A DNA stretch of 64,000 bases from Escherichia coli (GTDB taxonomy: Bacteria; Pseudomonadota; Gammaproteobacteria; Enterobacterales; Enterobacteriaceae). Positions 3,989-52,586 of this stretch are shown one piece after another. A program made the position numbers and the translations under genes. The notes beneath the pieces were generated by a model. That model did no database searches. It saw only the letters and a list, made by a program, of their open reading frames with translations, and was not told the origin of the DNA. The stretch lies in NCBI RefSeq assembly GCF_001677475.2, contig NZ_CP015229.1; one strand, 5' to 3'. Positions within the stretch are counted from its first letter, which is position 1. Each line of letters begins with the position of its first letter.

Positions 3989-5074
3989 TTAATTGATGGT
4001 TGGTAGAGATGGAGTAAAAATTACCGATAGTTTCCCCATGTAATACCCGGCCTGTTTATCCATCACGCTAAATTTATCGACCGCCAGGGTTAATGGCGTC
4101 GGCACACACATGACAGCGTAACGAATTCCTGGCAGCACAACCGGACGAACGCGCTTCAGGTTGATGCTGTTCCAGACCATATTTTCATTGTTGCGAACAT
4201 CAATTTGCCCGCCCGTTTCCGGGTTATACATTTTTACCCGATAATCAATGCGTTCTGAGGCATCTGTCGATGTTCCTCCCTGACGATAGATCGAGAAGTC
4301 GCCATCTCTTCGTCCGGCAGCCGGGCGACCTTCATCTTTAAGCTGGATTTCATAACTGATAGCGTTGCCGTTAAAACCATCGTACAGGCACATATCCAGC
4401 GTGGTCAGATCCTGAGCATAGTTACTGCCATTGACGCTCCCCGTCGGGTGTAGATCCAACTGTACCCGTGGCGTGGCGTGGGCAAACTCAGGAAAGAAGA
4501 TATCGATATGGTTGGGATCGAGCGTATTAAGCGTGATATCCGCAACATAATCTGTTCCAGGAGTGGAAAAACGTAATTTAGCAGAACCTTCCCAGACGCC
4601 GCCGATTGGTAATTTTTTCATTTCGGCTTGTTCAAGATACAGGGTTACCGGCTTTGCAGTGGCAAGATGTTGAACATTATCATTACCCTTGCAGTAATAG
4701 CCATTACCATCAGTCAAATTCAGTTGCTTGCTCCATCCCTTGCATGGCCCTTCATCCCAGACTTCTGCGTTCATATAGCCCGTCAGTTTCACAGGCCAAC
4801 GCATACCGCTGCGCTTTTCAGTCAAGTAAATCTGCACTTTTGTCGTGTTTCCAGATGATGTGCAGGTCTGCTGCATATCAGAGAAGTTGCACTGATACCA
4901 TGCCCATGTAGTGTTGTAGTTGTACGCCGGTGGGGCTTCTTTGTTCCAGAAATAGTAATTCGCCCTCCCCGTCGCCAAATCGTAAGTTACATCCGCCGTA
5001 ACATTTTGGGCTGCCTGAACACCCGCAACCGAGCCCCAAAAGCAAAATAGTATGGCAATCAATCGCTTTCTCAT
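3989..5074 (-). CDS. Fimbrial tip/minor adhesin, class 5 (CfaE/CooD-like), 361 aa with signal peptide
   Basis: Size and motifs (KLPIGGVW, DLHPTG, DMCLYDGF, GYYMGKLSVIFTPS) resemble CfaE/CooD as recalled; last gene of a chaperone-pilin-usher-adhesin operon. Confidence 0.8.
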   Translation of the reverse strand: MRKRLIAILFCFWGSVAGVQAAQNVTADVTYDLATGRANYYFWNKEAPPAYNYNTTWAWYQCNFSDMQQTCTSSGNTTKVQIYLTEKRSGMRWPVKLTGYMNAEVWDEGPCKGWSKQLNLTDGNGYYCKGNDNVQHLATAKPVTLYLEQAEMKKLPIGGVWEGSAKLRFSTPGTDYVADITLNTLDPNHIDIFFPEFAHATPRVQLDLHPTGSVNGSNYAQDLTTLDMCLYDGFNGNAISYEIQLKDEGRPAAGRRDGDFSIYRQGGTSTDASERIDYRVKMYNPETGGQIDVRNNENMVWNSINLKRVRPVVLPGIRYAVMCVPTPLTLAVDKFSVMDKQAGYYMGKLSVIFTPSLPTIN

Positions 5075-7755
5075 GGTGCAACCTCCCTTTGCGCCGTTTG
5101 CACACTTTCGCGTAATTTAGGCTGTTTTAACTGCGCCTGAACCTGAATCGACTCTGGCAATTGCGAATAACTCACGACGCTACAAGTCACATCGCCGCTG
5201 TAACGAATGCTGGCGCGTTTCTTCACAACAGTCAGCGGACATTTAAGGAATTCGTGTCCGGAAAGCAGATACAGTTCTTTATCATTGCCGCTAATTTCCA
5301 GCGTAAATCCGCCATCTTCAGCCACCAATAACATGGTGCTGTTCAGACCAATCAGCGGGAATTTCTCTACTGATGCTGGCAATAACAAGCGACCAATATA
5401 GTTGTAGTTAAAGCTGGCAGTGACTTCGCGATAACGTAACTTACCGGGCAGCAACATTAATTCCCGGTTTCCCGCGCCATTGATAATATTGGTTGTTCCC
5501 TGCTGATTGCCCTGGTTGCTGTCCCTGACGTCAACAAAGCCCGACTGGAATCCAGCATAGGGGAACAACACACTGTCACTTTGACCAAGTTGCAGAGTTC
5601 TGCTGCCCGCAACCCGAGCTTCGAATTGCAGATCCTGGCTCTCTTCATCCTGTTCAGTAAATCCTTTTACATCGACTAATACAGCGCCGAGCAGATCATC
5701 TGTTCCACTGGCTCCCAGATTAATTCCGTAACGACTCACCGCCAGTGTGGAACTGTAAGTCCCTGTAAAGGCAGAAAGATGATCATGGTTCTTGCGATCG
5801 TAACTGTCTGATACGGTTCCGTTGAGATTACCGTACTGCCCTTCCCAACGACCATTAACCGCACTGTTTATGGTATCGGTGTTCAGGCCACCGACGGTTA
5901 CGCCAAGTTCTTTATGGCTGAATGAATCATTATAAAAGGTATGCGATAACTGCCATGAAGTTTGGTCGCCATCCTGATCGCTATAGCGATAGTCAGTCGA
6001 AACATTGGTTGAGTGACTGTTATTATTGCTGTCCATCGTTGGTGTATCAGATAACGAAAACGATAAGTACAATCCGTTGTCGTCGTTATCTCCGCCGTTG
6101 TCGTTACGATGGAAAACCCCGACAGAAGTGCTCAAAATCCAGTCACGCATTATAAAAGCGCGAGACGCGCTAAGCTGTACGGTTTCAGAAATACTTTGCG
6201 CAGAAGTCTGGCGAAGATAGTTATTTTCAAAACTCTGCTGTTTGTCCCAGCGTAAGCTGTCGTCGGTGTTATTTTGCGTGCGGGTATAACCCAGCATCAG
6301 GTTCCAGCCGATAAGATTCTGTGAAATCGTAGCGGATATGCTTTCATAACAGCTTAAGGCGTTGTAGCTATCTCTGCTGTCGGTTGTACAAGCATCTCCG
6401 TCGGAGTTGGTACGATAAAAGCCCAGCGTCGGCCATCCCGAATTACTCCAGTTAACCTGCTGCATATCACCTTTGCCGCCATCGTCATTGCGGAACAGGC
6501 TGGCACCTATGGCAAGATTCCCCGCCCCGCCTAAATCCGCCGTCCAGTTATTACCTAACTCGAAAGCATTCACATCATCGGCATTCGCCAGCCCTGCGTA
6601 GAGCTCATATTGTGGATGTAACGGCAGGCGAAAACCCAGTTGATAAGCTGAACTTTCGTCATCGGCAGCCTGGGAGGTGGTTTTACCGGCCTGTAAGAAC
6701 CACTGCGCATTTCCGTCCGTCAGCCCCCCTGTTTTGGTAAAAGGGACAAGTTCAGTGCGGGTGAGTTGGTTGTTCTCATAAACTTTTAACGCCACGCTGT
6801 AGCTGCCTGGCGGAAAGGAACCAGTATCAATAAATTGCGAACCACTATTGAGATAAAACGATCCCAGAAGTTGTTCATTACGATAAGCGTCAACACGAGA
6901 ATTGCGCGAAAGCAGGACCATTACTGGCGTTCCTTGCTGACTCTGCGCCTGGTTTAAATAACTGAGTGTTGACCCGATACGCATTCCATCGATTGCACCG
7001 AGTGGCAGAAAGTTAAAAGTAAAATTCCCGCCTTGTGCATTAAATAGCGTGCGGTTGTCCATTCGCCCCGCCTGCACATAATAACGACGTAAAAAATCAT
7101 AACGATAATAGAGATCGCTGACATCAGCATTATTATCGCTGACATCTTCTGCCTCATAGCCATTGAAATTCCAGTGCCCGCCAATATAACTATTCTCTGT
7201 GACACCCAGCGCACCATTGCCCTGAATGGAGAACGATTGGTAATCATCCTGCACCAGCACGTTAATATCCTGCTGATGAATAAATGCATTAATCGCGTTT
7301 CTGTCTGGATTTAAATATAGCGATTTTGAATTTAACGAGGAACTCCATTGGGGATTCAGAAAGAGGGTGGCGGAACTCTCTTCATCATTAAAAATAATGT
7401 CAACAGAATCGGTATTGAGAAAGCCACATCCTGAATCGGTCTGCGCAAAACCACAAGCCAGTTCACCATGACGCACCAGTGGTTGTGCCAGTCTCGCTTT
7501 TACGGCTTGAGTGATTTTTTGGTCTTTGGTATCCAGCTCCAGCTTATTATATAAACTTGCTGAATCCAGAAATGTTACGGCATCAAGATTAACCATTGCA
7601 TAATATTTACCGAGACTTTTCCCGGCATAATAGACTTCAATATACTCCTGCTGTCCCTGTGCAATAACCTCAAACCCAGCGGGAATTTTAGTTAATGCTG
7701 CCTTTGCCGGGCTGAGACTCGCCAGGATCAAAAGAGCCAGTAATTTTTTATCCAT
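5071..7755 (-). CDS. Fimbrial outer-membrane usher (CooC/CfaC-like), about 894 aa
   Basis: ORF 5071..7809 (912 aa); start preferred at MDKKLLALLILASLSPAKA (signal peptide, ATG at 7755, RBS agggt); large beta-barrel-type protein between pilin and adhesin genes. Confidence 0.85.
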   Translation of the reverse strand: MDKKLLALLILASLSPAKAALTKIPAGFEVIAQGQQEYIEVYYAGKSLGKYYAMVNLDAVTFLDSASLYNKLELDTKDQKITQAVKARLAQPLVRHGELACGFAQTDSGCGFLNTDSVDIIFNDEESSATLFLNPQWSSSLNSKSLYLNPDRNAINAFIHQQDINVLVQDDYQSFSIQGNGALGVTENSYIGGHWNFNGYEAEDVSDNNADVSDLYYRYDFLRRYYVQAGRMDNRTLFNAQGGNFTFNFLPLGAIDGMRIGSTLSYLNQAQSQQGTPVMVLLSRNSRVDAYRNEQLLGSFYLNSGSQFIDTGSFPPGSYSVALKVYENNQLTRTELVPFTKTGGLTDGNAQWFLQAGKTTSQAADDESSAYQLGFRLPLHPQYELYAGLANADDVNAFELGNNWTADLGGAGNLAIGASLFRNDDGGKGDMQQVNWSNSGWPTLGFYRTNSDGDACTTDSRDSYNALSCYESISATISQNLIGWNLMLGYTRTQNNTDDSLRWDKQQSFENNYLRQTSAQSISETVQLSASRAFIMRDWILSTSVGVFHRNDNGGDNDDNGLYLSFSLSDTPTMDSNNNSHSTNVSTDYRYSDQDGDQTSWQLSHTFYNDSFSHKELGVTVGGLNTDTINSAVNGRWEGQYGNLNGTVSDSYDRKNHDHLSAFTGTYSSTLAVSRYGINLGASGTDDLLGAVLVDVKGFTEQDEESQDLQFEARVAGSRTLQLGQSDSVLFPYAGFQSGFVDVRDSNQGNQQGTTNIINGAGNRELMLLPGKLRYREVTASFNYNYIGRLLLPASVEKFPLIGLNSTMLLVAEDGGFTLEISGNDKELYLLSGHEFLKCPLTVVKKRASIRYSGDVTCSVVSYSQLPESIQVQAQLKQPKLRESVQTAQREVAP

Positions 7756-7780
7756 GGCAACCCTGTAATCCATAACAACG

Positions 7781-7820
7781 ACTAAAATAGTTAAAATAAG
7801 GGAGGACAAGCCCCCCCTTT
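7781..7820 (-). terminator. Intra-operon hairpin (GGGGGG/CCUCCC stem, U-rich tail) between the pilin and usher genes; possible attenuator
   Basis: Minus-strand transcript ggggggg-cttgtc-ctccctt followed by auuuuaacuauuuu; position matches pilin/usher attenuators seen in other chaperone-usher operons. Confidence 0.4.
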
Positions 7821-7846
7821 ATTACGTATTAATTCTGTTATCCGGA

Positions 7847-8347
7847 TTAGATATCCTGGGACAGATAGATGCTTACCACACCACGGTAAATACCGGTTTC
7901 CAGTACACCTTTGGTGGTCTGAGCAAACATCAGGTTTTTAGCCAAAGAACCGTTGGTTAAAGCATCGGAAGCAAAAATTTTGGTTGCTTCGAAAGTGGTA
8001 GCGGCATCAGACTTGATTTCAGTACCACCCCAGGTCACAGTCAGCGGAACAGTTTTGCTGCCGTCCAGGTTATGAACCAGTTGCGCAGGGGAAACCAACT
8101 GCATTTTAATGTCTTTAGTAACATCGTTAGACCAAATTTTAGTCATCAACTGATAAGATTGCAGACCCTGACCCGGCAGATATTGCATTTCAACTGCTTT
8201 CGGCAGTGCGCTGTTATCGGTTTGCGTCATATCCAGGGCGGCATCAACGTTAGCTGTTACAGTAATATCTTTTTGTACTGCTAACGCGGAGCCTGCTACA
8301 GAGAATAACGCTGCTACCAGAAGAGATTTTGCAAATGCCTTTTTCAT
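7847..8347 (-). CDS. Major fimbrial subunit, class 5 (CooA/CfaB-like pilin), 166 aa with signal peptide
   Basis: ITVTANVDAALDMTQTDNSALP and C-terminal YRGVVSIYLSQ resemble CooA ISVTASVDPTVDLLQSDGSALP ... YQGLVSIIL as recalled. Confidence 0.85.
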   Translation of the reverse strand: MKKAFAKSLLVAALFSVAGSALAVQKDITVTANVDAALDMTQTDNSALPKAVEMQYLPGQGLQSYQLMTKIWSNDVTKDIKMQLVSPAQLVHNLDGSKTVPLTVTWGGTEIKSDAATTFEATKIFASDALTNGSLAKNLMFAQTTKGVLETGIYRGVVSIYLSQDI

Positions 8348-8376
8348 TACTATTCCTTCGTTTATGACAATGATAA

Positions 8377-9093
8377 TTAATGGATCGCCAGCTCAAACTC
8401 GCCATTATCCTTAGTGATCCAGTTATTATATTTGACAACGATCTTGTCGTAGCCAGATATGCTTTCAAGATTTATTTCCTGACCAGGGAAGATATTTTTA
8501 TTTACGGTCTGCATCTTACAATTATCTTTGCTATTATTTTTGCAATAAGCGATCGTTAAAAGTTTTAAACGTTGATTCCCTGCATTAAATAATTTTTTGG
8601 CAGGATTTACTTCTAACTTAGCAATAGGTTGTTGGGGTGGAACACTAACAACAATCCCCCAAATCAAGTTAACTGTTAACTGCATAGAGAGATCTTTTTT
8701 ATCTGTGGCAACGTCATCAATACTGGGAACTGCTTCAAATTTAACGCGGTAATTTTTCTCTTTTTGCTCTGGTTCCATTGCGACAAAGCGCACGGTTTTG
8801 CTGCTACCGGCTGGTAAGGCGAATTTGGGTGGCATAACGACCAGATGATTTGCATCACCGGATTTAATCTCAACTTCATTTTCCTGAGGCGTCGATGGAT
8901 TATCTATACGGAATACTGTCGCCTTGATATACTGAACTTCATTACTTTTAGATATTACACGAACGTTGCCTTCACCCTGACTATTAATAGAAACAGCCAT
9001 AGGATAAACAGTCATATTTGACTGTGCAAAAAAAGGAGCGAACACGAATAAAAGCGGCGTAAGCCGTGATAAGAGTTTAATTTTCGCCACCAT
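8377..9093 (-). CDS. Periplasmic fimbrial chaperone, class 5 (CooB/CfaA-like), 238 aa
   Basis: IYPMAVS, KSNEVQYIKATV and YRVKFEAV resemble CooB IYPISKD, KSKEIQYIKIYT and YRVYFEAV as recalled; first gene of the operon. Confidence 0.85.
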   Translation of the reverse strand: MVAKIKLLSRLTPLLFVFAPFFAQSNMTVYPMAVSINSQGEGNVRVISKSNEVQYIKATVFRIDNPSTPQENEVEIKSGDANHLVVMPPKFALPAGSSKTVRFVAMEPEQKEKNYRVKFEAVPSIDDVATDKKDLSMQLTVNLIWGIVVSVPPQQPIAKLEVNPAKKLFNAGNQRLKLLTIAYCKNNSKDNCKMQTVNKNIFPGQEINLESISGYDKIVVKYNNWITKDNGEFELAIH

Positions 9094-39237: not shown

Positions 39238-39333
39238 GTTTAAAGTCCCCACGTCCATTAATAATGCATTTGCATTACCTTAGTTCAAGCTTATAATTTG
39301 AGCAGAAAACAGGCTGTAAAAGGACAGTGAATC

Positions 39334-39669
39334 ATGCCCGCTAATGCTCGCTCTCACGCTGTACTGACCACTGAATCAAAGGTCACGATACGCGGACAAA
39401 CAACTATCCCCGCGCCAGTGCGTGAGGCCTTAAAACTGAAGCCAGGCCAGGACAGCATTCATTACGAAATTCTGCCTGGTGGGCAAGTATTTATGTGCCG
39501 ACTGGGAGATGAACAGGAGGATCATACTATGAATGCATTTTTGCGTTTTCTGGATGCAGATATCCAGAACAACCCGCAAAAAACTCGTCCATTCAACATT
39601 CAACAAGGAAAGAAACTTGTCGCTGGCATGGACGTCAACATTGATGATGAGATTGGCGACGACGAATAA
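39334..39669 (+). CDS. prlF: Type II antitoxin PrlF (SohA), 111 aa
   Basis: MPANARSHAVLTTESKVTIRGQTTIPAPVREALKLKPGQ (AbrB/SpoVT-type DNA-binding N-terminus), acidic C-terminus. Confidence 0.9.
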   Translation: MPANARSHAVLTTESKVTIRGQTTIPAPVREALKLKPGQDSIHYEILPGGQVFMCRLGDEQEDHTMNAFLRFLDADIQNNPQKTRPFNIQQGKKLVAGMDVNIDDEIGDDE

Positions 39670-40133
39670 TGGATTTTCCACAAAGGGTTAATGGTTGGGC
39701 GCTATATGCTCATCCCTGTTTTCAGGAAACCTACGACGCTTTAGTTGCCGAAGTCGAGACATTAAAGGGAAAAGATCCTGAAAATTATCAGAGAAAAGCC
39801 GCCACAAAGTTATTGGCGGTAGTCCATAAAGTGATTGAGGAGCATATCACGGTCAATCCATCATCACCGGCATTCCGTCATGGCAAGTCGTTAGGCTCTG
39901 GGAAAAATAAAGACTGGTCACGGGTAAAATTTGGTGCTGGTCGTTATCGTCTCTTCTTTCGTTATAGTGAAAAAGAGAAAGTCATCATTCTGGGATGGAT
40001 GAACGATGAAAACACTCTGCGCACCTACGGTAAAAAAACAGATGCCTATACCGTATTCAGCAAAATGTTAAAAAGAGGACATCCTCCTGCCGACTGGGAA
40101 ACCCTCACCCGAGAGACAGAAGAAACCCATTGA
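39669..40133 (+). CDS. yhaV: Type II toxin YhaV (ribonuclease), 154 aa
   Basis: MDFPQRVNGWALYAHPCFQETYDALVAEVE...; start overlaps the prlF stop (ATGA). Confidence 0.9.
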   Translation: MDFPQRVNGWALYAHPCFQETYDALVAEVETLKGKDPENYQRKAATKLLAVVHKVIEEHITVNPSSPAFRHGKSLGSGKNKDWSRVKFGAGRYRLFFRYSEKEKVIILGWMNDENTLRTYGKKTDAYTVFSKMLKRGHPPADWETLTRETEETH

Positions 40134-40187
40134 TGGTGTTCACAATGCCCGCCGAACGCATTCGTGTTGACCAGCGGGCACCCTTTC

Positions 40188-40997
40188 TCACTCCCCGACC
40201 AGAATCACTTCAACCCCAGCCTTTCGCAGGCCTTCCAGACTATCCGCAGGAATGCCTTCATCAACAATGATCATGTCGATACGTTGAGTATCAATGATCT
40301 TATGTAAACTGGAACGATTGAACTTACTGGAATCGGTGACCACGATGATCCGTTCCGCAACTTCGCACATCCGACGGTTTAAACGGGCTTCATCTTCATT
40401 ATGCGTGCTGACACCGCGCTCCAGATCAATCGCATCTACGCCAAGAAACAGCATATCGAAGTGGTAATTTTGCAGCGATTGTTCAGCCTGATCGCCGTAA
40501 AAAGATTGCGACTGACGGCGCAAATGCCCGCCGGTCATCAGCAGCTCAACGCCTTCCGCTTCCAGCAACGCATTAGCCACGTTCATACCGTTGGTCATCG
40601 CAATTACGTCAGTGTGCTTGCGCATCAGACGAGCAATCTCAAAAGTGGTGGTCCCGGAATCGAGGATCACCCGATGACCTGGCTGAATCAACTCAACGGC
40701 AGCTTTCGCAACGCTGCGTTTCATCGCGGTGTTCAGCGCGCTTTTATCTTCCACTGATGGCTCGACTGACGGCGTCGTGCTATCGCAGATCAACGCGCCG
40801 CCATAGGCACGCACAGCGATCCCCTGCTTTTCCAGAAACGCCAGATCGTTGCGGATCGTCACAGTAGATACGCCATACAATGCCGACAGATCGTTAACCT
40901 GCACACTCCCTTGCTGTCGCAGACGCTGAATGATCTGTTCTCGTCGCTCGCTGGTGCCTGTCATTCGCTTCTCACCTGAAGCGTCGGTATTACTCAT
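40188..40997 (-). CDS. agaR: DeoR-family repressor AgaR, 269 aa
   Basis: [52 protein letters not shown]. Confidence 0.92.
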
Positions 40998-41016
40998 AGT
41001 AAGTCCTTTCGTAAAA

Positions 41017-41214
41017 CTTTCGTTTCATTTCGTTTTGCCTATTAACGCCTTTCTATTAAGCAAATGCAAGCCCACCTTACCCATTGGCGCAAGCTACTCT
41101 CGTTTCAGTGGCTTTCATTATGTTTCTTTTGTGAATCAGATCAGAAAACCATTATCTTTCGTTTTATTTTTATCTCACCATGACGCAGTATCAATTGAAA
41201 CAAAACGAAAGATC
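41017..41214. promoter_or_regulatory. Cluster of AgaR-operator-like motifs (TTTCGTTT repeats) in the agaR/kbaZ divergent region
   Basis: ctttcgtttcatttcgttttgcc (41017..41039), ctttcgttttatttttatc (41156..41174), inverted ttgaaacaaaacgaaagatc (41195..41214); fits the published AgaR site pattern as recalled. Confidence 0.55.
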
Positions 41215-41245
41215 AATATCGCAGTAATCTGAACTGGAGAGGAAA

Positions 41246-42526
41246 GTGAAACATCTGACAGAAATGGTGAGACAGCACAAAGAGGGTAAAACAAATGGGA
41301 TTTATGCCGTTTGTTCCGCACATCCGCTGGTGCTGGAAGCTGCAATCCGCTACGCCAGTGCAAACCAAACGCCGTTACTGATTGAAGCAACCTCCAATCA
41401 GGTGGACCAGTTCGGCGGTTATACCGGAATGACGCCCGCCGATTTTCGCGGCTTTGTTTGTCAGCTCGCCGACTCGTTGAATTTCCCACAGGATGCGTTG
41501 ATTCTGGGTGGCGACCATCTGGGTCCAAACCGCTGGCAAAATCTGCCTGCCGCTCAGGCAATGGCCAATGCCGATGATTTGATTAAAAGCTACGTGGCGG
41601 CAGGATTCAAAAAAATCCACCTTGATTGCAGCATGTCCTGTCAGGACGATCCAATTCCCTTAACTGATGACATCGTGGCTGAACGCGCCGCCCGTCTGGC
41701 GAAAGTGGCGGAAGAAACCTGTCGCGAACACTTTGGCGAAGCCGATCTGGAGTATGTCATTGGTACCGAAGTGCCGGTACCTGGCGGCGCGCATGAAACC
41801 TTAAGCGAGCTGGCGGTCACCACGCCGGATGCCGCCCGCGCCACGCTGGAAGCCCATCGTCACGCCTTTGAAAAGCAAGGTTTGAATGCCATCTGGCCAC
41901 GCATCATTGCCCTGGTGGTGCAACCCGGCGTCGAATTCGATCACACCAACGTTATTGATTATCAGCCCGCCAAAGCGAGCGCCTTAAGCCAGATGGTCGA
42001 AAACTACGAAACGCTGATTTTCGAAGCGCACTCTACCGATTATCAAACGCCGCAATCGCTGCGCCAGCTGGTGATTGACCACTTTGCCATTCTGAAAGTT
42101 GGCCCGGCGCTGACCTTCGCCCTGCGTGAAGCTCTGTTCTCTCTGGCAGCGATTGAAGAAGAACTGGTGCCAGCAAAAGCCTGTTCTGGTCTGCGTCAGG
42201 TGCTGGAAAACGTGATGCTCGACCGCCCGGAATACTGGCAAAGCCACTACCACGGTGACGGCAACGCGCGTCGTCTGGCGCGTGGTTATAGCTACTCGGA
42301 TCGCGTGCGCTATTACTGGCCGGACAGCCAGATTGATGACGCTTTCGCTCATCTGGTTCGTAATCTGGCGGATTCACCAATTCCGCTACCGCTCATCAGC
42401 CAGTATTTGCCGCTGCAATACGTGAAAGTTCGCTCCGGCGAGCTGCAGCCAACACCACGGGAACTCATTATCAACCATATTCAGGACATCCTGGCGCAGT
42501 ACCACACAGCCTGTGAAGGCCAATAA
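41246..42526 (+). CDS. kbaZ: Tagatose-bisphosphate aldolase subunit KbaZ (AgaZ), 426 aa, GTG start
   Basis: [61 protein letters not shown]. Confidence 0.92.
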
Positions 42527-42548
42527 GCAAAATAAAGAGGAACACGCT

Positions 42549-43022
42549 ATGCCAAATATTGTTTTAAGCCGGATTGATGAGCGTTTGATTCACGGTCAGG
42601 TCGGCGTTCAGTGGGTCGGATTTGCGGGGGCAAATCTGGTGCTGGTAGCCAACGATGAGGTTGCCGAAGATCCGGTACAACAAAACCTGATGGAAATGGT
42701 ACTGGCAGAAGGGATCGCCGTACGTTTCTGGACGCTGCAAAAAGTTATCGACAACATTCATCGCGCCGCCGATCGACAGAAAATCCTGCTGGTTTGTAAA
42801 ACACCTGCCGATTTCCTGACGCTGGTGAAAGGTGGCGTTCCGGTGAATCGCATTAACGTTGGCAATATGCACTACGCCAATGGCAAGCAACAAATCGCCA
42901 AAACGGTTTCTGTGGATGCGGGTGATATCGCAGCATTTAACGACCTGAAAGCCGCTGGGGTGGAATGCTTCGTTCAGGGCGTCCCGACAGAGCCTGCTGT
43001 GGACCTCTTTAAATTACTTTGA
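42549..43022 (+). CDS. agaV: N-acetylgalactosamine PTS IIB component AgaV, 157 aa
   Basis: ORF 42513..43022; start at MPNIVLSRIDERLIHGQVGVQW (mannose-family IIB). Confidence 0.9.
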   Translation: MPNIVLSRIDERLIHGQVGVQWVGFAGANLVLVANDEVAEDPVQQNLMEMVLAEGIAVRFWTLQKVIDNIHRAADRQKILLVCKTPADFLTLVKGGVPVNRINVGNMHYANGKQQIAKTVSVDAGDIAAFNDLKAAGVECFVQGVPTEPAVDLFKLL

Positions 43023-43032
43023 GGGATTCATC

Positions 43033-43812
43033 ATGGAAATCAGTCTGTTGCAGGCATTCGCGTTGGGCATTATCGCCTTTATCGCTGGCCTGGATATGTT
43101 TAACGGCCTAACCCATATGCACCGCCCGGTGGTCCTCGGCCCGTTGGTCGGGCTGGTACTTGGCGATCTGCATACCGGTATTTTAACCGGCGGTACGCTG
43201 GAACTGGTGTGGATGGGGCTGGCCCCGCTGGCAGGCGCACAGCCGCCTAACGTGATTATCGGTACTATCGTCGGCACGGCGTTTGCCATTACTACCGGCG
43301 TGAAACCCGATGTCGCGGTCGGTGTCGCCGTACCTTTCGCTGTCGCAGTACAGATGGGGATTACCTTCCTGTTCTCGGTGATGTCTGGCGTAATGTCCCG
43401 CTGCGACCGGATGGCGGAGAACGCCGATACACGCGGCATTGAACGCGTGAACTATCTGGCACTGCTGGCACTCGGCACTTTCTATTTTCTCTGCGCTTTC
43501 CTGCCTATCTACTTCGGCGCAGAACATGCCAAAACCATCATTGATGTCCTACCGCAACGATTAATCGACGGCCTCGGCGTCGCGGGCGGCATCATGCCAG
43601 CAATCGGTTTTGCCGTACTGCTGAAAATCATGATGAAAAACGTCTACATCCCCTACTTCATCCTGGGCTTTGTTGCCGCAGCCTGGCTCAAGTTACCGGT
43701 GCTGGCTATTGCTGCCGCCGCGCTGGCGATGGCGCTGATCGACCTGCTGCGTAAATCTCCTGAACCGACTCAACCTGCGGCACAGAAAGAGGAATTTGAA
43801 GATGGCATCTAA
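43033..43812 (+). CDS. agaW: N-acetylgalactosamine PTS IIC component AgaW, full length 259 aa
   Basis: MEISLLQAFALGIIAFIAGLDMFNG...; intact here, truncated in K-12 as recalled. Confidence 0.88.
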   Translation: MEISLLQAFALGIIAFIAGLDMFNGLTHMHRPVVLGPLVGLVLGDLHTGILTGGTLELVWMGLAPLAGAQPPNVIIGTIVGTAFAITTGVKPDVAVGVAVPFAVAVQMGITFLFSVMSGVMSRCDRMAENADTRGIERVNYLALLALGTFYFLCAFLPIYFGAEHAKTIIDVLPQRLIDGLGVAGGIMPAIGFAVLLKIMMKNVYIPYFILGFVAAAWLKLPVLAIAAAALAMALIDLLRKSPEPTQPAAQKEEFEDGI

Positions 43813-44680
43813 TCAAACCACCCTGCCGAACGTCAGTGAAAACGAAGAAACACTGCTGACAGGCGTCAATGAAAACGTGTATGAAGATCAGAGCATTGGC
43901 GCAGAGCTGACGAAAAAAGATATCAACCGCGTCGCCTGGCGTTCCATGCTGTTACAAGCGTCTTTTAACTACGAGCGTATGCAGGCTTCCGGCTGGTTGT
44001 ACGGTCTGCTGCCTGCTCTGAAAAAGATCCACACTAATAAACGCGACCTGGCGCGCGCCATGAAGGGGCATATGGGTTTCTTCAATACCCATCCGTTTCT
44101 GGTGACGTTTGTTATCGGCATTATCCTTGCGATGGAGCGTTCTAAGCAGGACGTTAACAGTATTCAGAGCACCAAAATTGCCGTCGGTGCGCCGCTCGGC
44201 GGGATTGGCGATGCGATGTTCTGGCTAACGCTACTGCCGATTTGTGGCGGGATAGGCGCAAGCCTCGCGCTACAAGGCTCTATTCTTGGCGCAGTCGTCT
44301 TTATTGTGCTGTTCAACGTGGTACACCTGGGGCTGCGTTTTGGTCTGGCGCATTATGCTTACCGCATGGGCGTGGCGGCGATTCCACTCATTAAAGCGAA
44401 TACCAAAAAAGTCGGCCATGCTGCGTCAATCGTTGGGATGACGGTAATCGGCGCGCTGGTGGCAACCTATGTTCGTTTAAGCACCACGCTGGAAATCACC
44501 GCTGGCGACGCAGTGGTTAAGTTACAGGCTGATGTTATCGACAAACTGATGCCTGCCTTCTTACCGCTGGTCTACACCCTGACCATGTTCTGGCTGGTAC
44601 GCCGCGGCTGGAGTCCGCTGCGCCTGATTGCAGTTACCGTGGTACTCGGCATCGTCGGTAAATTCTGTCATTTCCTTTAA
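43796..44680 (+). CDS. agaE: N-acetylgalactosamine PTS IID component AgaE, 294 aa
   Basis: Mannose-family IID profile; MKMASNQTTLPNVSENEETLLTGVNENVYEDQSIGAELTKKDINRVAWRS. Confidence 0.85.
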   Translation: MKMASNQTTLPNVSENEETLLTGVNENVYEDQSIGAELTKKDINRVAWRSMLLQASFNYERMQASGWLYGLLPALKKIHTNKRDLARAMKGHMGFFNTHPFLVTFVIGIILAMERSKQDVNSIQSTKIAVGAPLGGIGDAMFWLTLLPICGGIGASLALQGSILGAVVFIVLFNVVHLGLRFGLAHYAYRMGVAAIPLIKANTKKVGHAASIVGMTVIGALVATYVRLSTTLEITAGDAVVKLQADVIDKLMPAFLPLVYTLTMFWLVRRGWSPLRLIAVTVVLGIVGKFCHFL

Positions 44681-44697
44681 ATACAATGAGGTATTAG

Positions 44698-45132
44698 ATG
44701 TTAAGTATTATTTTGACAGGGCATGGCGGATTTGCCAGCGGCATGGAAAAAGCAATGAAGCAAATCCTCGGCGAGCAATCGCAGTTTATCGCCATCGATT
44801 TTCCGGAAACCTCAAGCACCGCGCTGCTTACATCGCAGCTTGAAGAGGCCATCGCCCAACTGGATTGTGAAGACGGCATTGTTTTTCTGACGGATTTGCT
44901 GGGCGGCACGCCGTTTCGCGTAGCTTCAACGCTGGCGATGCAAAAACCGGGCTGTGAAGTGATCACCGGCACCAATTTGCAACTGCTACTGGAGATGGTG
45001 CTGGAGCGCGAAGGGTTAAGCGGTGAAGAGTTCCGTGTGCAGGCGCTTGAGTGTGGACACCGTGGGCTGACCAGTCTGGTAGATGAGTTAGGCCGCTGCC
45101 ATGAAGAATGTCCGGTCGAGGAAGGAATATGA
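44698..45132 (+). CDS. agaF: N-acetylgalactosamine PTS IIA component AgaF, 144 aa
   Basis: MLSIILTGHGGFASGMEKAMKQILGEQ (mannose-family IIA). Confidence 0.85.
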   Translation: MLSIILTGHGGFASGMEKAMKQILGEQSQFIAIDFPETSSTALLTSQLEEAIAQLDCEDGIVFLTDLLGGTPFRVASTLAMQKPGCEVITGTNLQLLLEMVLEREGLSGEEFRVQALECGHRGLTSLVDELGRCHEECPVEEGI

Positions 45133-46262
45133 CACCCGTTTTGCGCGCCAGAAGGCTGCTGACTGAAGAGGGATGGCTCGATGACCATCAGTTGCGTATT
45201 GCTGACGGTGTAATCGCAGCAATCGAACCGATTCCAGTGGGCGTGACTGAACGCGATGCGGAACTGCTCTGCCCCGCTTACATCGACACCCATGTACACG
45301 GTGGTGCGGGCGTTGATGTAATGGATGACGCGCCGGATGTGCTCGACAAGCTGGCAATGCACAAAGCACGCGAAGGTGTCGGCAGTTGGTTACCGACCAC
45401 CGTAACCGCGCCGCTTAATACCATTCATGCGGCGCTGGAACGTATTGCTCAACGTTGCCAACGCGGCGGACCTGGTGCGCAAGTGCTGGGGAGTTATCTC
45501 GAAGGACCGTACTTCACGCCGCAGAATAAAGGTGCGCATCCGCCGGAGCTGTTCCGCGAGCTGGAAATTGCCGAGCTGGATCAATTGATTGCCGTTTCTC
45601 AGCACACCTTGCGCGTGGTGGCGCTGGCACCGGAAAAAGAAGGGGCATTGCAGGCCATCCGCCATCTTAAACAGCAAAACGTACGGGTGATGCTGGGGCA
45701 TAGCGCGGCGACCTGGCAACAAACCCGTGCCGCGTTTGACGCTGGTGCCGACGGCCTGGTGCATTGCTATAACGGGATGACAGGTTTACATCACCGCGAA
45801 CCGGGAATGGTTGGCGCGGGATTAACGGACAAGCGCGCCTGGCTGGAACTGATAGCCGATGGTCATCATGTGCATCCGGCGGCGATGTCGCTGTGTTGTT
45901 GCTGTGCGAAAGAGAGAATCGTGCTCATCACCGACGCGATGCAGGCAGCAGGGATGCCGGATGGTCGCTATACGTTATGTGGTGAAGAAGTGCAGATGCA
46001 CGGTGGCGTTGTCCGTACCGCGTCCGGTGGGCTGGCGGGCAGTACGCTGTCTGTCGATGCGGCAGTGCGCAACATGGTCGAGTTGACGGGCGTAACGCCT
46101 GCGGAAGCCATCCATATGGCGTCGCTGCATCCGGCGCGTATGCTGGGTGTTGATGATGTTCTGGGATCGCTTAAACCGGGCAAACGCGCCAGCGTCGTTG
46201 CGCTGGATAGCGGGCTGCATGTGCAACAAATCTGGATTCAGGGTCAATTAGCTTCGTTTTGA
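45129..46262 (+). CDS. agaA: N-acetylgalactosamine-6-phosphate deacetylase AgaA, 377 aa, full length
   Basis: ORF 45108..46262; start at MTPVLRARRLLTEEGWLDDHQLRIADG; NagA-like metal-binding HVHGG motif. Confidence 0.88.
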   Translation: MTPVLRARRLLTEEGWLDDHQLRIADGVIAAIEPIPVGVTERDAELLCPAYIDTHVHGGAGVDVMDDAPDVLDKLAMHKAREGVGSWLPTTVTAPLNTIHAALERIAQRCQRGGPGAQVLGSYLEGPYFTPQNKGAHPPELFRELEIAELDQLIAVSQHTLRVVALAPEKEGALQAIRHLKQQNVRVMLGHSAATWQQTRAAFDAGADGLVHCYNGMTGLHHREPGMVGAGLTDKRAWLELIADGHHVHPAAMSLCCCCAKERIVLITDAMQAAGMPDGRYTLCGEEVQMHGGVVRTASGGLAGSTLSVDAAVRNMVELTGVTPAEAIHMASLHPARMLGVDDVLGSLKPGKRASVVALDSGLHVQQIWIQGQLASF

Positions 46263-46339
46263 TGGTTTGCTCCTTTATTGGGCCTTCACTTCCCCCGTAA
46301 GGCCTTTCTTTTTCTTTCGTTGTGCTCTGTGCAGGGTAT

Positions 46340-46391
46340 CGGATGCGACGCTGACACATCTTCTTTGACCTACGGTACGCCGCATCCGGCA
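46340..46391. repeat. REP-like palindromic unit in the agaA/agaS intergenic region
   Basis: cggatgcgacgctg ... gtacgccgcatccgg inverted repeat. Confidence 0.5.
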
Positions 46392-46460
46392 ATCGGTGAA
46401 CATAGCGACGTCATCACGCAATCCTTTAATCTTCCCTTGTCTTTTCTTTCAACGATCACA

Positions 46461-46558
46461 AATTTCGTTTTATTTCCTTTTCCTCCATTGATCTTTCAGT
46501 TTCTTTTCTATAGATTTTGATCAACGAAATGTATCACCAAGTGAAACGAAACGAAAGG
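46461..46558. promoter_or_regulatory. AgaR-operator-like motifs upstream of agaS
   Basis: aatttcgttttatttccttttcc and inverted gtgaaacgaaacgaaagg. Confidence 0.5.
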
Positions 46559-46611
46559 TAAGCGAAAGCGACAACGCCCGACGTCAAGTTCATCAGACTA
46601 AGGATTGAGTT

Positions 46612-47766
46612 ATGCCAGAAAATTACACCCCTGCTGCTGCCGCAACCGGTACATGGACTGAAGAAGAGATCCGCCATCAGCCTCGCGCATGGATCCGTTC
46701 ACTCACCAACATCGACGCGCTACGTTCCGCGCTCAATAACTTCCTTGAACCGTTACTGCGCAAAGAGAATCTGCGGGTAATCCTGACCGGAGCCGGAACC
46801 TCGGCATTTATCGGTGACATCATCGCGCCGTGGCTCGCCAGCCATACCGGTAAAAACTTCAGCGCCGTACCGACCACCGATCTGGTCACCAATCCGATGG
46901 ACTACCTGAATCCAGCTCATCCACTGCTGTTGATCTCCTTCGGTCGATCCGGCAACAGCCCGGAAAGCGTCGCCGCCGTGGAACTGGCAAATCAATTTGT
47001 ACCCGAGTGCTATCACCTGCCGATCACCTGCAACGAAGCGGGCGCTCTTTACCAAAACGCGATCAACAGCGACAACGCGTTTGCCCTACTGATGCCCGCA
47101 GAAACGCACGATCGCGGCTTTGCGATGACCAGCAGCATTACCACCATGATGGCCAGCTGCCTCGCGGTTTTCGCACCTGAAACGATCAACAGCCAGAGCT
47201 TCCGCGACGTGGCGGATCGTTGCCAGGCGATCCTAACCTCACTGGGCGATTTCAGCGAAGGTGTGTTTGGTTACGCACCGTGGAAACGGATCGTTTATCT
47301 CGGCAGCGGTGGCTTACAGGGCGCAGCACGCGAGTCGGCGCTGAAAGTACTGGAACTGACGGCGGGTAAACTGGCGGCCTTTTATGATTCCCCGACCGGA
47401 TTCCGTCATGGACCAAAATCGCTGGTCGATAACGAAACGCTGGTGGTGGTATTTGTCTCCAGCCACCCTTACACCCGTCAGTATGATCTTGATCTGCTGG
47501 CTGAACTTCGCCGCGATAACCAGGCGATGCGCGTAATCGCTATCGCCGCGGAAAGCAACGACGTTATTACCGCCGGTCCACATATCATCCTGCCGCCGTC
47601 CCGTCACTTTATCGACGTTGAGCAGGCATTTTGCTTCCTGATGTACGCCCAGACGTTTGCACTGATGCAATCGCTGCACATGGGCAATACGCCGGATACC
47701 CCATCAGCCAGCGGCACCGTTAACCGCGTGGTGCAAGGCGTAATCATTCATCCGTGGCAGGCATAA
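46612..47766 (+). CDS. agaS: Galactosamine-6-phosphate deaminase/isomerase AgaS (SIS domains), 384 aa
   Basis: MPENYTPAAAATGTWTEEEIRHQPRAWIRSL... Confidence 0.92.
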   Translation: MPENYTPAAAATGTWTEEEIRHQPRAWIRSLTNIDALRSALNNFLEPLLRKENLRVILTGAGTSAFIGDIIAPWLASHTGKNFSAVPTTDLVTNPMDYLNPAHPLLLISFGRSGNSPESVAAVELANQFVPECYHLPITCNEAGALYQNAINSDNAFALLMPAETHDRGFAMTSSITTMMASCLAVFAPETINSQSFRDVADRCQAILTSLGDFSEGVFGYAPWKRIVYLGSGGLQGAARESALKVLELTAGKLAAFYDSPTGFRHGPKSLVDNETLVVVFVSSHPYTRQYDLDLLAELRRDNQAMRVIAIAAESNDVITAGPHIILPPSRHFIDVEQAFCFLMYAQTFALMQSLHMGNTPDTPSASGTVNRVVQGVIIHPWQA

Positions 47767-48639
<873 letters not shown>

Positions 48640-48805
48640 TCATTAGTTTTTTATGATTTATCCCAATGTACTTCCCGATTAATATCGGGGAGTGCCTTAA
48701 TGGAAAAGGAGATGACTAAACCTTAATAAATACATCAGTACAATATCGCAACAATAATATATTTAAAAAAATTATATTATTCAACTTTATGGTGAGGATT
48801 ACACA

Positions 48806-49282
48806 ATGAGCAGTCCAAATATTCTCTTAACCCGTATTGATAACCGTCTGGTTCATGGCCAGGTTGGCGTGACCTGGACATCCACCATCGGTGCAAATCT
48901 GCTGGTAGTCGTGGATGATGTTGTCGCTAACGATGATATTCAACAGAAATTAATGGGTATTACCGCGGAAACCTACGGCTTTGGCATTCGTTTCTTTACT
49001 ATCGAAAAAACCATTAACGTCATCGGCAAAGCTGCACCACACCAGAAGATCTTCCTGATTTGCCGTACGCCACAAACGGTACGTAAATTGGTAGAAGGTG
49101 GCATTGACCTGAAAGATGTCAACGTCGGCAATATGCATTTCTCGGAAGGGAAAAAGCAAATCAGCAGTAAAGTTTATGTCGATGACCAGGATCTCACGGA
49201 CTTACGTTTTATTAAACAACGTGGTGTGAATGTTTTCATTCAGGACGTCCCTGGCGATCAAAAAGAACAAATCCCTGACTAA
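48806..49282 (+). CDS. agaB: Galactosamine PTS IIB component AgaB, 158 aa
   Basis: MSSPNILLTRIDNRLVHGQVGVTW. Confidence 0.9.
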   Translation: MSSPNILLTRIDNRLVHGQVGVTWTSTIGANLLVVVDDVVANDDIQQKLMGITAETYGFGIRFFTIEKTINVIGKAAPHQKIFLICRTPQTVRKLVEGGIDLKDVNVGNMHFSEGKKQISSKVYVDDQDLTDLRFIKQRGVNVFIQDVPGDQKEQIPD

Positions 49283-49320
49283 ATCTAAAATCACCTTAAT
49301 ATTAGTTTGAGGTAATAAAA

Positions 49321-50124
49321 ATGCATGAAATAACCCTACTTCAGGGATTATCCCTGGCGGCGTTAGTTTTCGTTCTGGGGATTGATTTTTGGCTGGAAGC
49401 CTTATTTTTATTCCGCCCGATAATCGTTTGTACCCTAACTGGCGCTATTCTCGGTGATATTCAGACTGGCTTAATTACCGGTGGTCTGACAGAGTTGGCT
49501 TTCGCCGGATTAACCCCTGCAGGTGGTGTTCAGCCGCCCAACCCGATTATGGCGGGTCTGATGACCACCGTCATTGCATGGTCTACGGGCGTTGATGCCA
49601 AAACAGCAATTGGTCTTGGCCTGCCGTTTAGTTTGTTAATGCAGTACGTCATTCTGTTCTTCTATTCCGCTTTCTCATTATTTATGACCAAAGCCGATAA
49701 ATGCGCGAAAGAGGCGGATACGGCAGCGTTTTCCCGGCTTAACTGGACAACGATGCTCATCGTCGCTTCAGCGTATGCGGTGATTGCTTTCCTCTGTACT
49801 TACCTGGCACAAGGGGCGATGCAGGCGCTGGTGAAAGCGATGCCCGCCTGGTTGACCCACGGCTTTGAAGTGGCTGGCGGTATTCTGCCTGCCGTTGGTT
49901 TTGGCTTGCTGCTGCGCGTAATGTTCAAAGCGCAATATATCCCTTACCTGATCGCCGGTTTCCTGTTTGTTTGCTACATCCAGGTCAGCAACCTGTTGCC
50001 GGTTGCCGTACTGGGTGCAGGCTTTGCGGTGTATGAGTTTTTCAATGCGAAATCCCGGCAGCAAGCGCAACCGCAGCCCGTTGCCAGTAAAAATGAAGAA
50101 GAGGACTACAGCAATGGGATCTGA
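49321..50124 (+). CDS. agaC: Galactosamine PTS IIC component AgaC, 267 aa
   Basis: MHEITLLQGLSLAALVFVLGIDFWLEALFLFRPII... Confidence 0.9.
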   Translation: MHEITLLQGLSLAALVFVLGIDFWLEALFLFRPIIVCTLTGAILGDIQTGLITGGLTELAFAGLTPAGGVQPPNPIMAGLMTTVIAWSTGVDAKTAIGLGLPFSLLMQYVILFFYSAFSLFMTKADKCAKEADTAAFSRLNWTTMLIVASAYAVIAFLCTYLAQGAMQALVKAMPAWLTHGFEVAGGILPAVGFGLLLRVMFKAQYIPYLIAGFLFVCYIQVSNLLPVAVLGAGFAVYEFFNAKSRQQAQPQPVASKNEEEDYSNGI

Positions 50125-50905
50125 AATCAGTAAAAAAGATATCACCCGTCTGGGCTTTCGTTCGTCGCTGCTGCAAGCGAGCTTTAACTACGAAAGGATG
50201 CAGGCGGGCGGTTTTACCTGGGCGATGTTGCCGATCCTGAAAAAGATTTATAAGGATGACAAACCGGGCCTAAGCGCGGCGATGAAAGATAACCTCGAAT
50301 TTATTAATACCCACCCAAATCTCGTCGGATTCCTGATGGGGTTATTAATTTCGATGGAAGAAAAAGGAGAAAACCGCGACACCATTAAAGGCCTCAAAGT
50401 GGCACTGTTTGGCCCAATCGCCGGGATTGGCGATGCGATTTTCTGGTTTACTTTGTTGCCGATTATGGCGGGAATTTGCTCATCATTTGCCAGCCAGGGA
50501 AACCTGCTGGGGCCGATTCTATTTTTCGCCGTTTACCTGCTTATCTTTTTCCTGCGCGTCGGCTGGACCCACGTCGGTTATTCAGTCGGCGTGAAGGCGA
50601 TCGATAAAGTGCGAGAGAACTCGCAGATGATTGCCCGTTCGGCAACCATCCTCGGGATCACGGTAATCGGCGGGCTGATCGCTTCGTATGTGCATATTAA
50701 CGTGGTGACATCGTTTGCCATCGACAGTACCCACAGCGTCGCGCTGCAGCAGGATTTCTTCGATAAAGTCTTCCCGAACATTTTACCGATGGCCTACACC
50801 CTGCTGATGTATTACTTCCTGCGGGTGAAAAAAGCGCATCCGGTGCTGTTAATCGGCGTGACGTTTGTGCTCTCTATTGTTTGTTCCGCATTCGGCATTT
50901 TGTAA
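50114..50905 (+). CDS. agaD: Galactosamine PTS IID component AgaD, 263 aa
   Basis: ORF 49967..50905; start at MGSEISKKDITRLGFRSSLLQASFNYERMQ (ATG 50114, overlaps the agaC 3' end). Confidence 0.9.
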   Translation: MGSEISKKDITRLGFRSSLLQASFNYERMQAGGFTWAMLPILKKIYKDDKPGLSAAMKDNLEFINTHPNLVGFLMGLLISMEEKGENRDTIKGLKVALFGPIAGIGDAIFWFTLLPIMAGICSSFASQGNLLGPILFFAVYLLIFFLRVGWTHVGYSVGVKAIDKVRENSQMIARSATILGITVIGGLIASYVHINVVTSFAIDSTHSVALQQDFFDKVFPNILPMAYTLLMYYFLRVKKAHPVLLIGVTFVLSIVCSAFGIL

Positions 50906-51673
50906 ATGGAACGAGGCACTGCTTCTGGCGGTGCCTCTTTACTTAAGGAATTTCATCCTGTGCAAACCCTTCAGCAAGTTGAAAACTATACGGCGTTAAG
51001 TGAACGTGCCAGCGAATATTTATTGGCCGTGATCCGTAGCAAACCGGATGCCGTGATTTGCCTGGCGACCGGAGCCACGCCATTACTGACGTATCATTAT
51101 CTGGTAGAAAAAATCCACCAGCAGCAGGTTGATGTCAGCCAACTAACCTTCGTCAAGCTCGACGAATGGGTGGATCTGCCATTAACTATGCCTGGCACCT
51201 GCGAAACTTTCCTGCAACAGCATATCGTGCAGCCGCTGGGGCTACGTGAAGACCAGCTCATCAGCTTTCGCTCCGAAGAGATAAATGAGACAGAGTGCGA
51301 ACGGGTAACGAACCTGATTGCGCGCAAAGGCGGTCTGGATTTATGCGTTCTCGGATTGGGGAAAAACGGTCATCTTGGGCTGAACGAACCGGGAGAAAAC
51401 CTGCAACCGACCTGCCATATCAGTCAACTTGATGCCAGAACACAGCAACATGAGATGTTAAAAACCGCGGGCCGTCCCGTGACTCGTGGGATCACCTTAG
51501 GCCTGAAGGATATTCTCAATGCCCGCGAAGTTTTGTTACTGGTGACTGGCGAAGGAAAGCAGGATGCGACAGAACGTTTTCTCACGGCTAAAGTCTCCAC
51601 CGCTATCCCGGCTTCGTTTTTATGGCTGCATAACTATTTCACATGCATGATTGATGAGATGTGTCGTCGTTAA
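50906..51673 (+). CDS. agaI: Putative galactosamine-6-phosphate deaminase/isomerase AgaI (NagB-like), 255 aa
   Basis: ATG directly follows the agaD stop; MERGTASGGASLLKEFHPVQTLQQVENYTALSERASEYLLAV. Confidence 0.88.
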   Translation: MERGTASGGASLLKEFHPVQTLQQVENYTALSERASEYLLAVIRSKPDAVICLATGATPLLTYHYLVEKIHQQQVDVSQLTFVKLDEWVDLPLTMPGTCETFLQQHIVQPLGLREDQLISFRSEEINETECERVTNLIARKGGLDLCVLGLGKNGHLGLNEPGENLQPTCHISQLDARTQQHEMLKTAGRPVTRGITLGLKDILNAREVLLLVTGEGKQDATERFLTAKVSTAIPASFLWLHNYFTCMIDEMCRR

Positions 51674-51675
51674 CT

Positions 51676-51719
51676 CGCCTGCTACAGGCGTTGCAACGCT
51701 ATTCCTGCTGCGACGCCTG
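51676..51719. terminator. Inverted repeat between convergent agaI and rsmI (possible bidirectional terminator)
   Basis: acaggcgt ... acgcctgt 8 bp arms with a long loop; weak as a classic terminator. Confidence 0.3.
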
Positions 51720-51722
51720 TAA

Positions 51723-52586
51723 TCACTCTCCCTGCTGCTCCAGTGCATACTTATACAGCGCATTTTTCTTCACGCCGTGAATTTCTGCGGCCAGCGCCGC
51801 CGCTTTTTTCAGCGGCAGTTCTGCCTGTAGCAGCGCCAGCGTGCGCAGGGCATCGGCGGGTAAGTCTTCTTCCTGTGCTTTATGGCCTTCGACAATCAGT
51901 ACCATTTCGCCTTTGCGACGGTTTTCATCTTCTTTGACCCACGCCAGCAGCTCGCCAACGGGCGCGCCGTGAATGGTTTCCCAGGTTTTGGTCAGCTCAC
52001 GCGCCAGAACGACGTAGCGGGATTCGCCTAATACCGCAACGATATCTTCCAGGCTATCTAACAGACGGTGGGTAGATTCATAAAAAATCAGCGTGCGCGG
52101 CTCCGCTTCAATGGCTTTTAGCGCATCACGGCGGCCTTTTGATTTGGCAGGTAAAAAGCCTTCATAACAAAAACGATCGGATGGTAAACCCGCGGCGCTT
52201 AACGCAGTGATAGCAGCACACGGCCCGGGTAGCGGCACCACGAGAATCCCCGCTTCACGGCAGGTACGCACCAGATGGTAGCCAGGATCGTTAATTAGCG
52301 GCGTTCCGGCATCGGAAACCAGCGCAATGTTTTGCCCCTCTTGCAGCTTCGCCAGCAGCGTTTCGGCTTTTTGTTGTTCGTTATGGTCGTGCAGCGCAAA
52401 CAACCGAGCATTAATCCCAAAATGTTGCAGCAATAAACCGGTGTGACGCGTATCCTCGGCGGCAATCAGATCAACGGCCTGTAATACCTCCAACGCACGC
52501 TGGGTGATATCCGCCAGATTGCCGATTGGCGTCGGTACAATGTAAAGCTGGCCCTGAGAATTATCCGCCGATTGGTGTTGTTTCAT
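51723..52586 (-). CDS. rsmI: 16S rRNA C1402 2'-O-methyltransferase RsmI, 287 aa
   Basis: [48 protein letters not shown]. Confidence 0.92.

Follow-up and report, generated by a model that had tools for sequence, protein, structure and literature searches.

The closest described counterpart of the locus analyzed here is yraHIJK (b3142-b3145), the cryptic chaperone-usher operon of E. coli K-12. The MG1655 annotation gives the order agaD, agaI, yraH, yraI, yraJ, yraK, rsmI (on the minus strand) and lpoA, which agrees with an earlier sequence-only reading of the DNA analyzed here in placing the four yra genes between agaI and rsmI. An ancestral reconstruction led González-Alba et al. 2019 (PMC6896753) to the view that the yra operon was acquired by the E/B1/A lineage only, and by mRNA profiling the yra operon and a CS1-type operon were found to be expressed specifically in A/B1 urinary isolates (PMC4128348). 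Prevalence data for Yra are presented in the figures of Wurpel et al. 2013 (PMC3559732), the main text of which carries no usable statement on the matter. The identical chromosomal position in the 64,000-nucleotide stretch of E. coli DNA studied here (the window) lacks all four genes and holds 99 bp of empty-site sequence instead. Lineage membership, following the distribution in PMC6896753, explains the absence; the junction itself, with its 49-bp spacer, the linked AgaI tail, its conservation in E. albertii and the alternative toxin-antitoxin and LysR/MBL alleles, is not described in that study.

The left side of the junction is formed by agaI (50906-51673, plus strand, 255 aa), the last gene of the aga cluster, which encodes galactosamine-6-phosphate isomerase. 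The ORF matches the corresponding NCBIfam equivalog (NF007291) with 471 bits against a cut-off of 271, its upstream neighbours are agaB, agaC and agaD by NCBIfam, and matching RefSeq genomes also annotate it as agaI. The convergent gene on the right is rsmI (yraL; 51723-52586, minus strand, 287 aa), encoding the 16S rRNA (cytidine1402-2'-O)-methyltransferase (NF011570, 626 bits, cut-off 502). The ORF coordinates confirm that the two stop codons are separated by exactly 49 bp (51674-51722), as the sequence-only reading had noted, and its statement that yraHIJK is missing at the K-12 position also holds: this spacer is all that lies between agaI and rsmI, with no subunit, chaperone, usher or adhesin gene, and searches of the 64-kb window with K-12 YraH, YraI, YraJ and YraK (tblastn) and with the K-12 yra segment (blastn) gave zero matches. 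This is a structural presence/absence difference, for which chance is not at issue. Farther upstream, the window carries an intact agaW-agaE-agaF-agaA stretch of about 2.3 kb (43409-45703) that is deleted in K-12, where agaW and agaA are annotated pseudogenes.

Blastn and sliding-window identity place the segment that differs from K-12 at 51631-51729. In 200-bp windows, identity to K-12 is 97-100% on both flanks, as far as 51630 on the left and starting at 51730 on the right; in between, homology collapses, and 99 bp replace 5484 bp of K-12 (L001, 6996-12479) comprising the agaI tail, a 400-bp AT-rich region upstream of yraH, yraHIJK itself, a hairpin and the last codon of rsmI. Both breaks (51630/51631 and 51729/51730) are sharp and fall within coding sequence, of agaI and rsmI respectively, and the alignments reveal no direct repeats or mobile-element ends at the yra boundaries. 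The G+C content of the K-12 yra segment is 45.1%, compared to 50.7% and 53.6% in its flanks. One candidate origin of the 49 bp, a remnant of the K-12 yra flanks, was rejected, as the only matches with the K-12 yraK-rsmI hairpin are two 6-base words (GTTGC/AACGCT), too weak for homology.

The left break, 43 bp within agaI, delimits a haplotype-specific 3' tail (51631-51673, plus strand), so that AgaI ends in LWLH-NYFTCMIDEMCRR in the window and in LWLH-SNFICLINT in K-12, the two tails being diverged but recognisably related homologs. The tail type tracks the absence of yra: E. albertii and L003 (labelled E. coli E69 but representing a species of its own) have the window type and E. whittamii has the K-12 type. 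On the other side RsmI has 287 aa in the window vs. 286 aa in K-12, the additional C-terminal Glu lying within the haplotype-specific segment. The window carries the protein ends of the empty allele (AgaI of 255 aa ending in DEMCRR, RsmI of 287 aa ending in QQGE), and in yra-less strains RefSeq annotates agaI as a 768-bp and rsmI as an 864-bp gene. The 3' end of rsmI recurs as a boundary in L005 (the GTDB species representative labelled E. coli SCPM-O-B-8794), where the whole aga cluster is missing (window 39282-51722) and the gap ends on the right precisely at the stop codon of rsmI (window 51723).

Within the spacer lies a conserved stem-loop (51683-51721; TACAGGCGTTGCA...TGCGACGCCTGTA), the window having the hairpin TACAGGCG...CGCCTGTA typical of the empty allele. 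Its minimum free energy is -24.5 kcal/mol (z = -3.6) on the plus strand and -24.3 kcal/mol (z = -2.5) on the minus strand. Five genomes retain the structure (-23 to -29 kcal/mol), and in L003 one base pair shows a compensatory change from G-C to A-U; a single such change among five sequences is thin evidence for a function of the hairpin. Since the G+C-rich stem has no U-tract directly 3' of it on either side (neither strand has a T-run), it does not qualify as a canonical intrinsic terminator, and a bidirectional terminator of that type was rejected; a terminator-pattern search gave zero sites in the spacer, and an Rfam search of 51000-52400 gave no match at E <= 1. The hairpin may instead be a common 3'-end structure of both convergent transcripts, protecting or terminating them. 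The sole sites returned by the pattern search lie inside the 3' end of rsmI (51787-51803, plus strand), where a G+C-rich hairpin followed by T6 (GCGGCCAGCGCCGCCGCTTTTTTC) lies in antisense orientation to rsmI, some 115 bp beyond the stop codon of agaI. It could terminate read-through from aga; such sites are no commoner than in shuffled sequences.

A yra-less junction is not unusual, contrary to what the sequence-only reading had implied. Of 5426 complete E. coli genomes, searched with a 1.7-kb query spanning the junction, 1835 have agaI and rsmI contiguous, ST131, APEC IMT5155 and other ExPEC among them, and the K-12 yra segment found yraHIJK DNA in 3523 of the 5426, chromosomal in every case; the restriction to certain lineages is already published (PMC6896753). 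Our reading of the lineages rests on named strains among the 5426 genomes, with ST131 and APEC IMT5155 (ExPEC/B2) among those without yra and K-12, O157, O103, O111 and O121 among those with it. About one in three E. coli have the empty allele, namely non-E/B1/A lineages such as B2 strains including ST131; the genome studied here is one of them, and its missing yraHIJK is an ordinary, already known and common lineage polymorphism. The best identity of the window to any of the 5426 genomes is 95.3% for positions 1-25000 (lowered by the fimbrial allele discussed below) and 98.2% for 40000-64000, and its source lineage is therefore poorly represented among complete RefSeq genomes. In strains that have the yra operon it is often damaged, with IS1 or IS1203 inside yraJ or yraK (hits H48, H59 and H66) and, in O121:H19 FWSEC0006 (L084, 16626-17706), with a frameshifted yraK.

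Complete E. coli genomes show four alleles at the agaI-rsmI site: the empty allele with the 49-bp spacer (~1822 genomes), a 0.85-kb toxin-antitoxin allele with RelE/ParE and HTH genes (~13), a 2.4-kb allele with a LysR regulator and an MBL-fold hydrolase (up to 64) and the 5.4-kb yraHIJK allele (~3523), the tally being approximate and about 4 of the 5426 genomes falling outside it. In E. coli XJ6-3 (L085, 2275-3125, equivalent to window 51675-51721) and 12 others the toxin-antitoxin pair stands between both stop codons in place of the spacer, and gene ends of the yra-less type are kept. Up to 64 further genomes carry short end-remnants in common with this cassette; the content of two of these, LHM10-1 (L089, 4001-6421) and O145:H28 RM12581 (L090, 975-3066), was examined, and in both a LysR regulator and an MBL-fold metallo-hydrolase lie between agaI and rsmI. 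The end remnants that the LysR/MBL and toxin-antitoxin alleles have in common measure 122 bp and 66 bp. In RM12581 a MalY/PatB gene and a PTS IIB fragment also take the place of the aga side.

Replaceable cassettes for surface structures or accessory functions, set between conserved core genes, are exchanged by flanking homologous recombination, the textbook case being the O-antigen cluster between galF and gnd. The agaI-rsmI site is similar to cassettes of this type in its sharp identity breaks at conserved flanks, its several unrelated alleles and cassettes that appear older than their flanks; unlike them it has few alleles, one of which is empty. Because the breaks are sharp, the gene tails are linked to the haplotype and several unrelated alleles are found, we infer that whole haplotypes may be exchanged as cassettes through homologous recombination within the conserved parts of both flanking genes. 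In that case the 49-bp gap would be the "empty" allele of an old cassette site with several alleles, immediately downstream of rsmI. Taken as a whole, this reading, with haplotypes swapped by flanking recombination and the hairpin as a common 3' end, appears to us quite probable.

The age of the alleles was approached by an RsmI-anchored scan with one genome per GTDB species, in which 80 loci are listed, without representatives of E. coli, E. fergusonii, E. marmotae and E. ruysiae. E. albertii aligns to the window across the junction in one 9.9-kb HSP with 91.4% identity, and L003 does so at ~94%. The spacer is exactly 49 bp long in the window, E. coli 1190, ST131 strain 4993, E. albertii and L003; compared to that of the window it is identical in E. 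coli 1190 and differs at 2 bases in ST131, 1 in E. albertii and 10 of 49 in L003. Independent recent deletions would not leave the same junction in all of these genomes, so that a fresh deletion scar is rejected and the empty junction is old.

The yra operon is likewise found at the same boundaries in other species, its proteins showing 83-90% amino acid identity to K-12 in E. whittamii and 53-65% in Escherichia sp. MOD1-EC7003, and the AT-rich region upstream of yraH is recognisably homologous between K-12 and both of these. Four-fold-site divergence from K-12 is 0.43-0.45 for the yra genes vs. 0.20-0.32 for flanking genes in E. whittamii, and 0.58-0.72 vs. 0.15-0.36 in MOD1-EC7003. With the yra genes diverged more than the flanks, the cassette alleles either coalesce deeper than the species or evolve faster, and the excess could partly reflect relaxed or diversifying selection and the lower G+C content rather than age. 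Recent introgression of yra from E. whittamii into E. coli was also considered and rejected, as it is at odds with yra genes that are more, not less, diverged than their flanks.

The sequence-only reading had further pointed to a different fimbrial operon, of class 5, about 42 kb away. Such an operon is indeed present between exuT and exuR (3989-9093, minus strand; identified from the ORFs and NCBIfam), about 42-47 kb from the junction. It is of the alternate chaperone-usher type (CS1/Tcf/Cbl): a chaperone gene is followed by those for the major subunit, the usher and the tip adhesin, and all four have homologs among the Tcf/CS1/Cbl proteins; the NCBIfam matches are to TcfA (2.5e-40), CblA/TcfB (1e-36), TcfC (2.9e-165) and TcfD (6e-31), all far below the equivalog cut-offs. 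The gene order and the matches to TcfA-D and CblA are as in the class-5 or alpha fimbriae, i.e. CS1, CFA/I, Tcf of Salmonella Typhi and the cable pilus of Burkholderia; the operon in the window differs from these named systems in the sub-cut-off scores and in its chromosomal location between exuT and exuR. The exuT-exuR site holds an operon in 1917 of the 5426 complete E. coli genomes, nearly all 82-88.6% identical to the window allele. This allele is divergent, nearly all of the matches in the 1917 genomes falling in the 80-90% band with a best full-length identity of 88.6%, and its tip-adhesin end (the first ~1.1 kb of the query) is unaligned in most of them; the exact adhesin protein of the window is present in public draft assemblies.

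The two fimbrial loci were read in the earlier note as a fimbrial repertoire swap, a description that is not supported, as all four combinations occur among the four genomes examined. K-12 has yra, by the MG1655 annotation, and no class-5 operon, exuT and exuR being presumably adjacent there; O121:H19 FWSEC0006 has both, ST131 strain 4993 has neither, and the window has the class-5 operon without yra. A functional swap, in which the class-5 operon at exuT/exuR compensates for or excludes the yra operon, would fit the state of the window itself, but that every combination is covered argues against it. Moreover, 1917 class-5 and 3523 yra genomes together outnumber the 5426 searched, which means that some genomes belong to both sets, and the carriers of class-5 operons include O26 strains in addition to O121:H19 FWSEC0006. 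Mutual exclusivity, i.e. the two operons never or rarely being together, is not what we find, and both are co-expressed in A/B1 isolates (PMC4128348). We consider a functional swap highly improbable. The two loci vary independently in the four genomes examined, a coupled exchange is not supported, and the class-5 operon is unrelated to the question of yra.

Two other accounts of the missing operon invoke deletion. That this strain or a near relative recently lost yraHIJK, starting from a K-12-like ancestor, might be expected from the presence of the operon at this position in K-12 and 65% of genomes, as well as from the frequent degradation of fimbrial operons by IS insertions and by frameshifts in yraJ and yraK. 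It is not borne out by the junction, where 99 bp of different sequence stand in place of any K-12-type remnant, where AgaI has a haplotype-linked tail of diverged but homologous sequence and where the length is identical in 1835 E. coli genomes, E. albertii and L003. With an empty junction conserved across species, a recent deletion is essentially refuted, and we give it hardly any credence. A more distant loss is harder to dismiss. In that account yra beside rsmI would be ancestral in Enterobacteriaceae, and the empty allele would derive from one ancient deletion followed by vertical and recombinational spread, the reverse of the published acquisition by E/B1/A. The boundaries are orthologous and the upstream region is common to three Escherichia species, and in Klebsiella, Citrobacter sp. 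MGH106 and Superficieibacter rsmI faces a convergent yra-like operon whose usher is 63-69% identical to YraJ. Against this, agaI and rsmI are immediate neighbours, with no yra, in E. albertii, several Citrobacter, Enterobacter, Trabulsiella and Phytobacter, and within E. coli parsimony favours a gain in E/B1/A (PMC6896753). An ancestral operon with an ancient loss seems to us unlikely. It is also possible, and we offer this tentatively, that the locus is multi-allelic across species, the empty and yra alleles predating the Escherichia splits and having been kept or re-exchanged by flanking homologous recombination.

For the genome studied here, the absence of yraHIJK from this site marks it as belonging to a yra-less lineage and implies nothing special about its adhesin repertoire; beyond correct annotation it is of little importance. 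Modest value is added by the base-level description of the junction, with its sharp breakpoints, conserved hairpin and four alternative cassettes, and only this description and the multi-allelic, apparently trans-species character of the site are mildly new. As an empty allele of an old cassette site, the junction would belong to a small recombination-exchange hotspot beside rsmI that might be of use as a marker for typing or as an illustrative case of how cassettes are replaced. If true, the reading of its alleles as trans-species would revise the published view that the E/B1/A lineage simply "acquired" yra.
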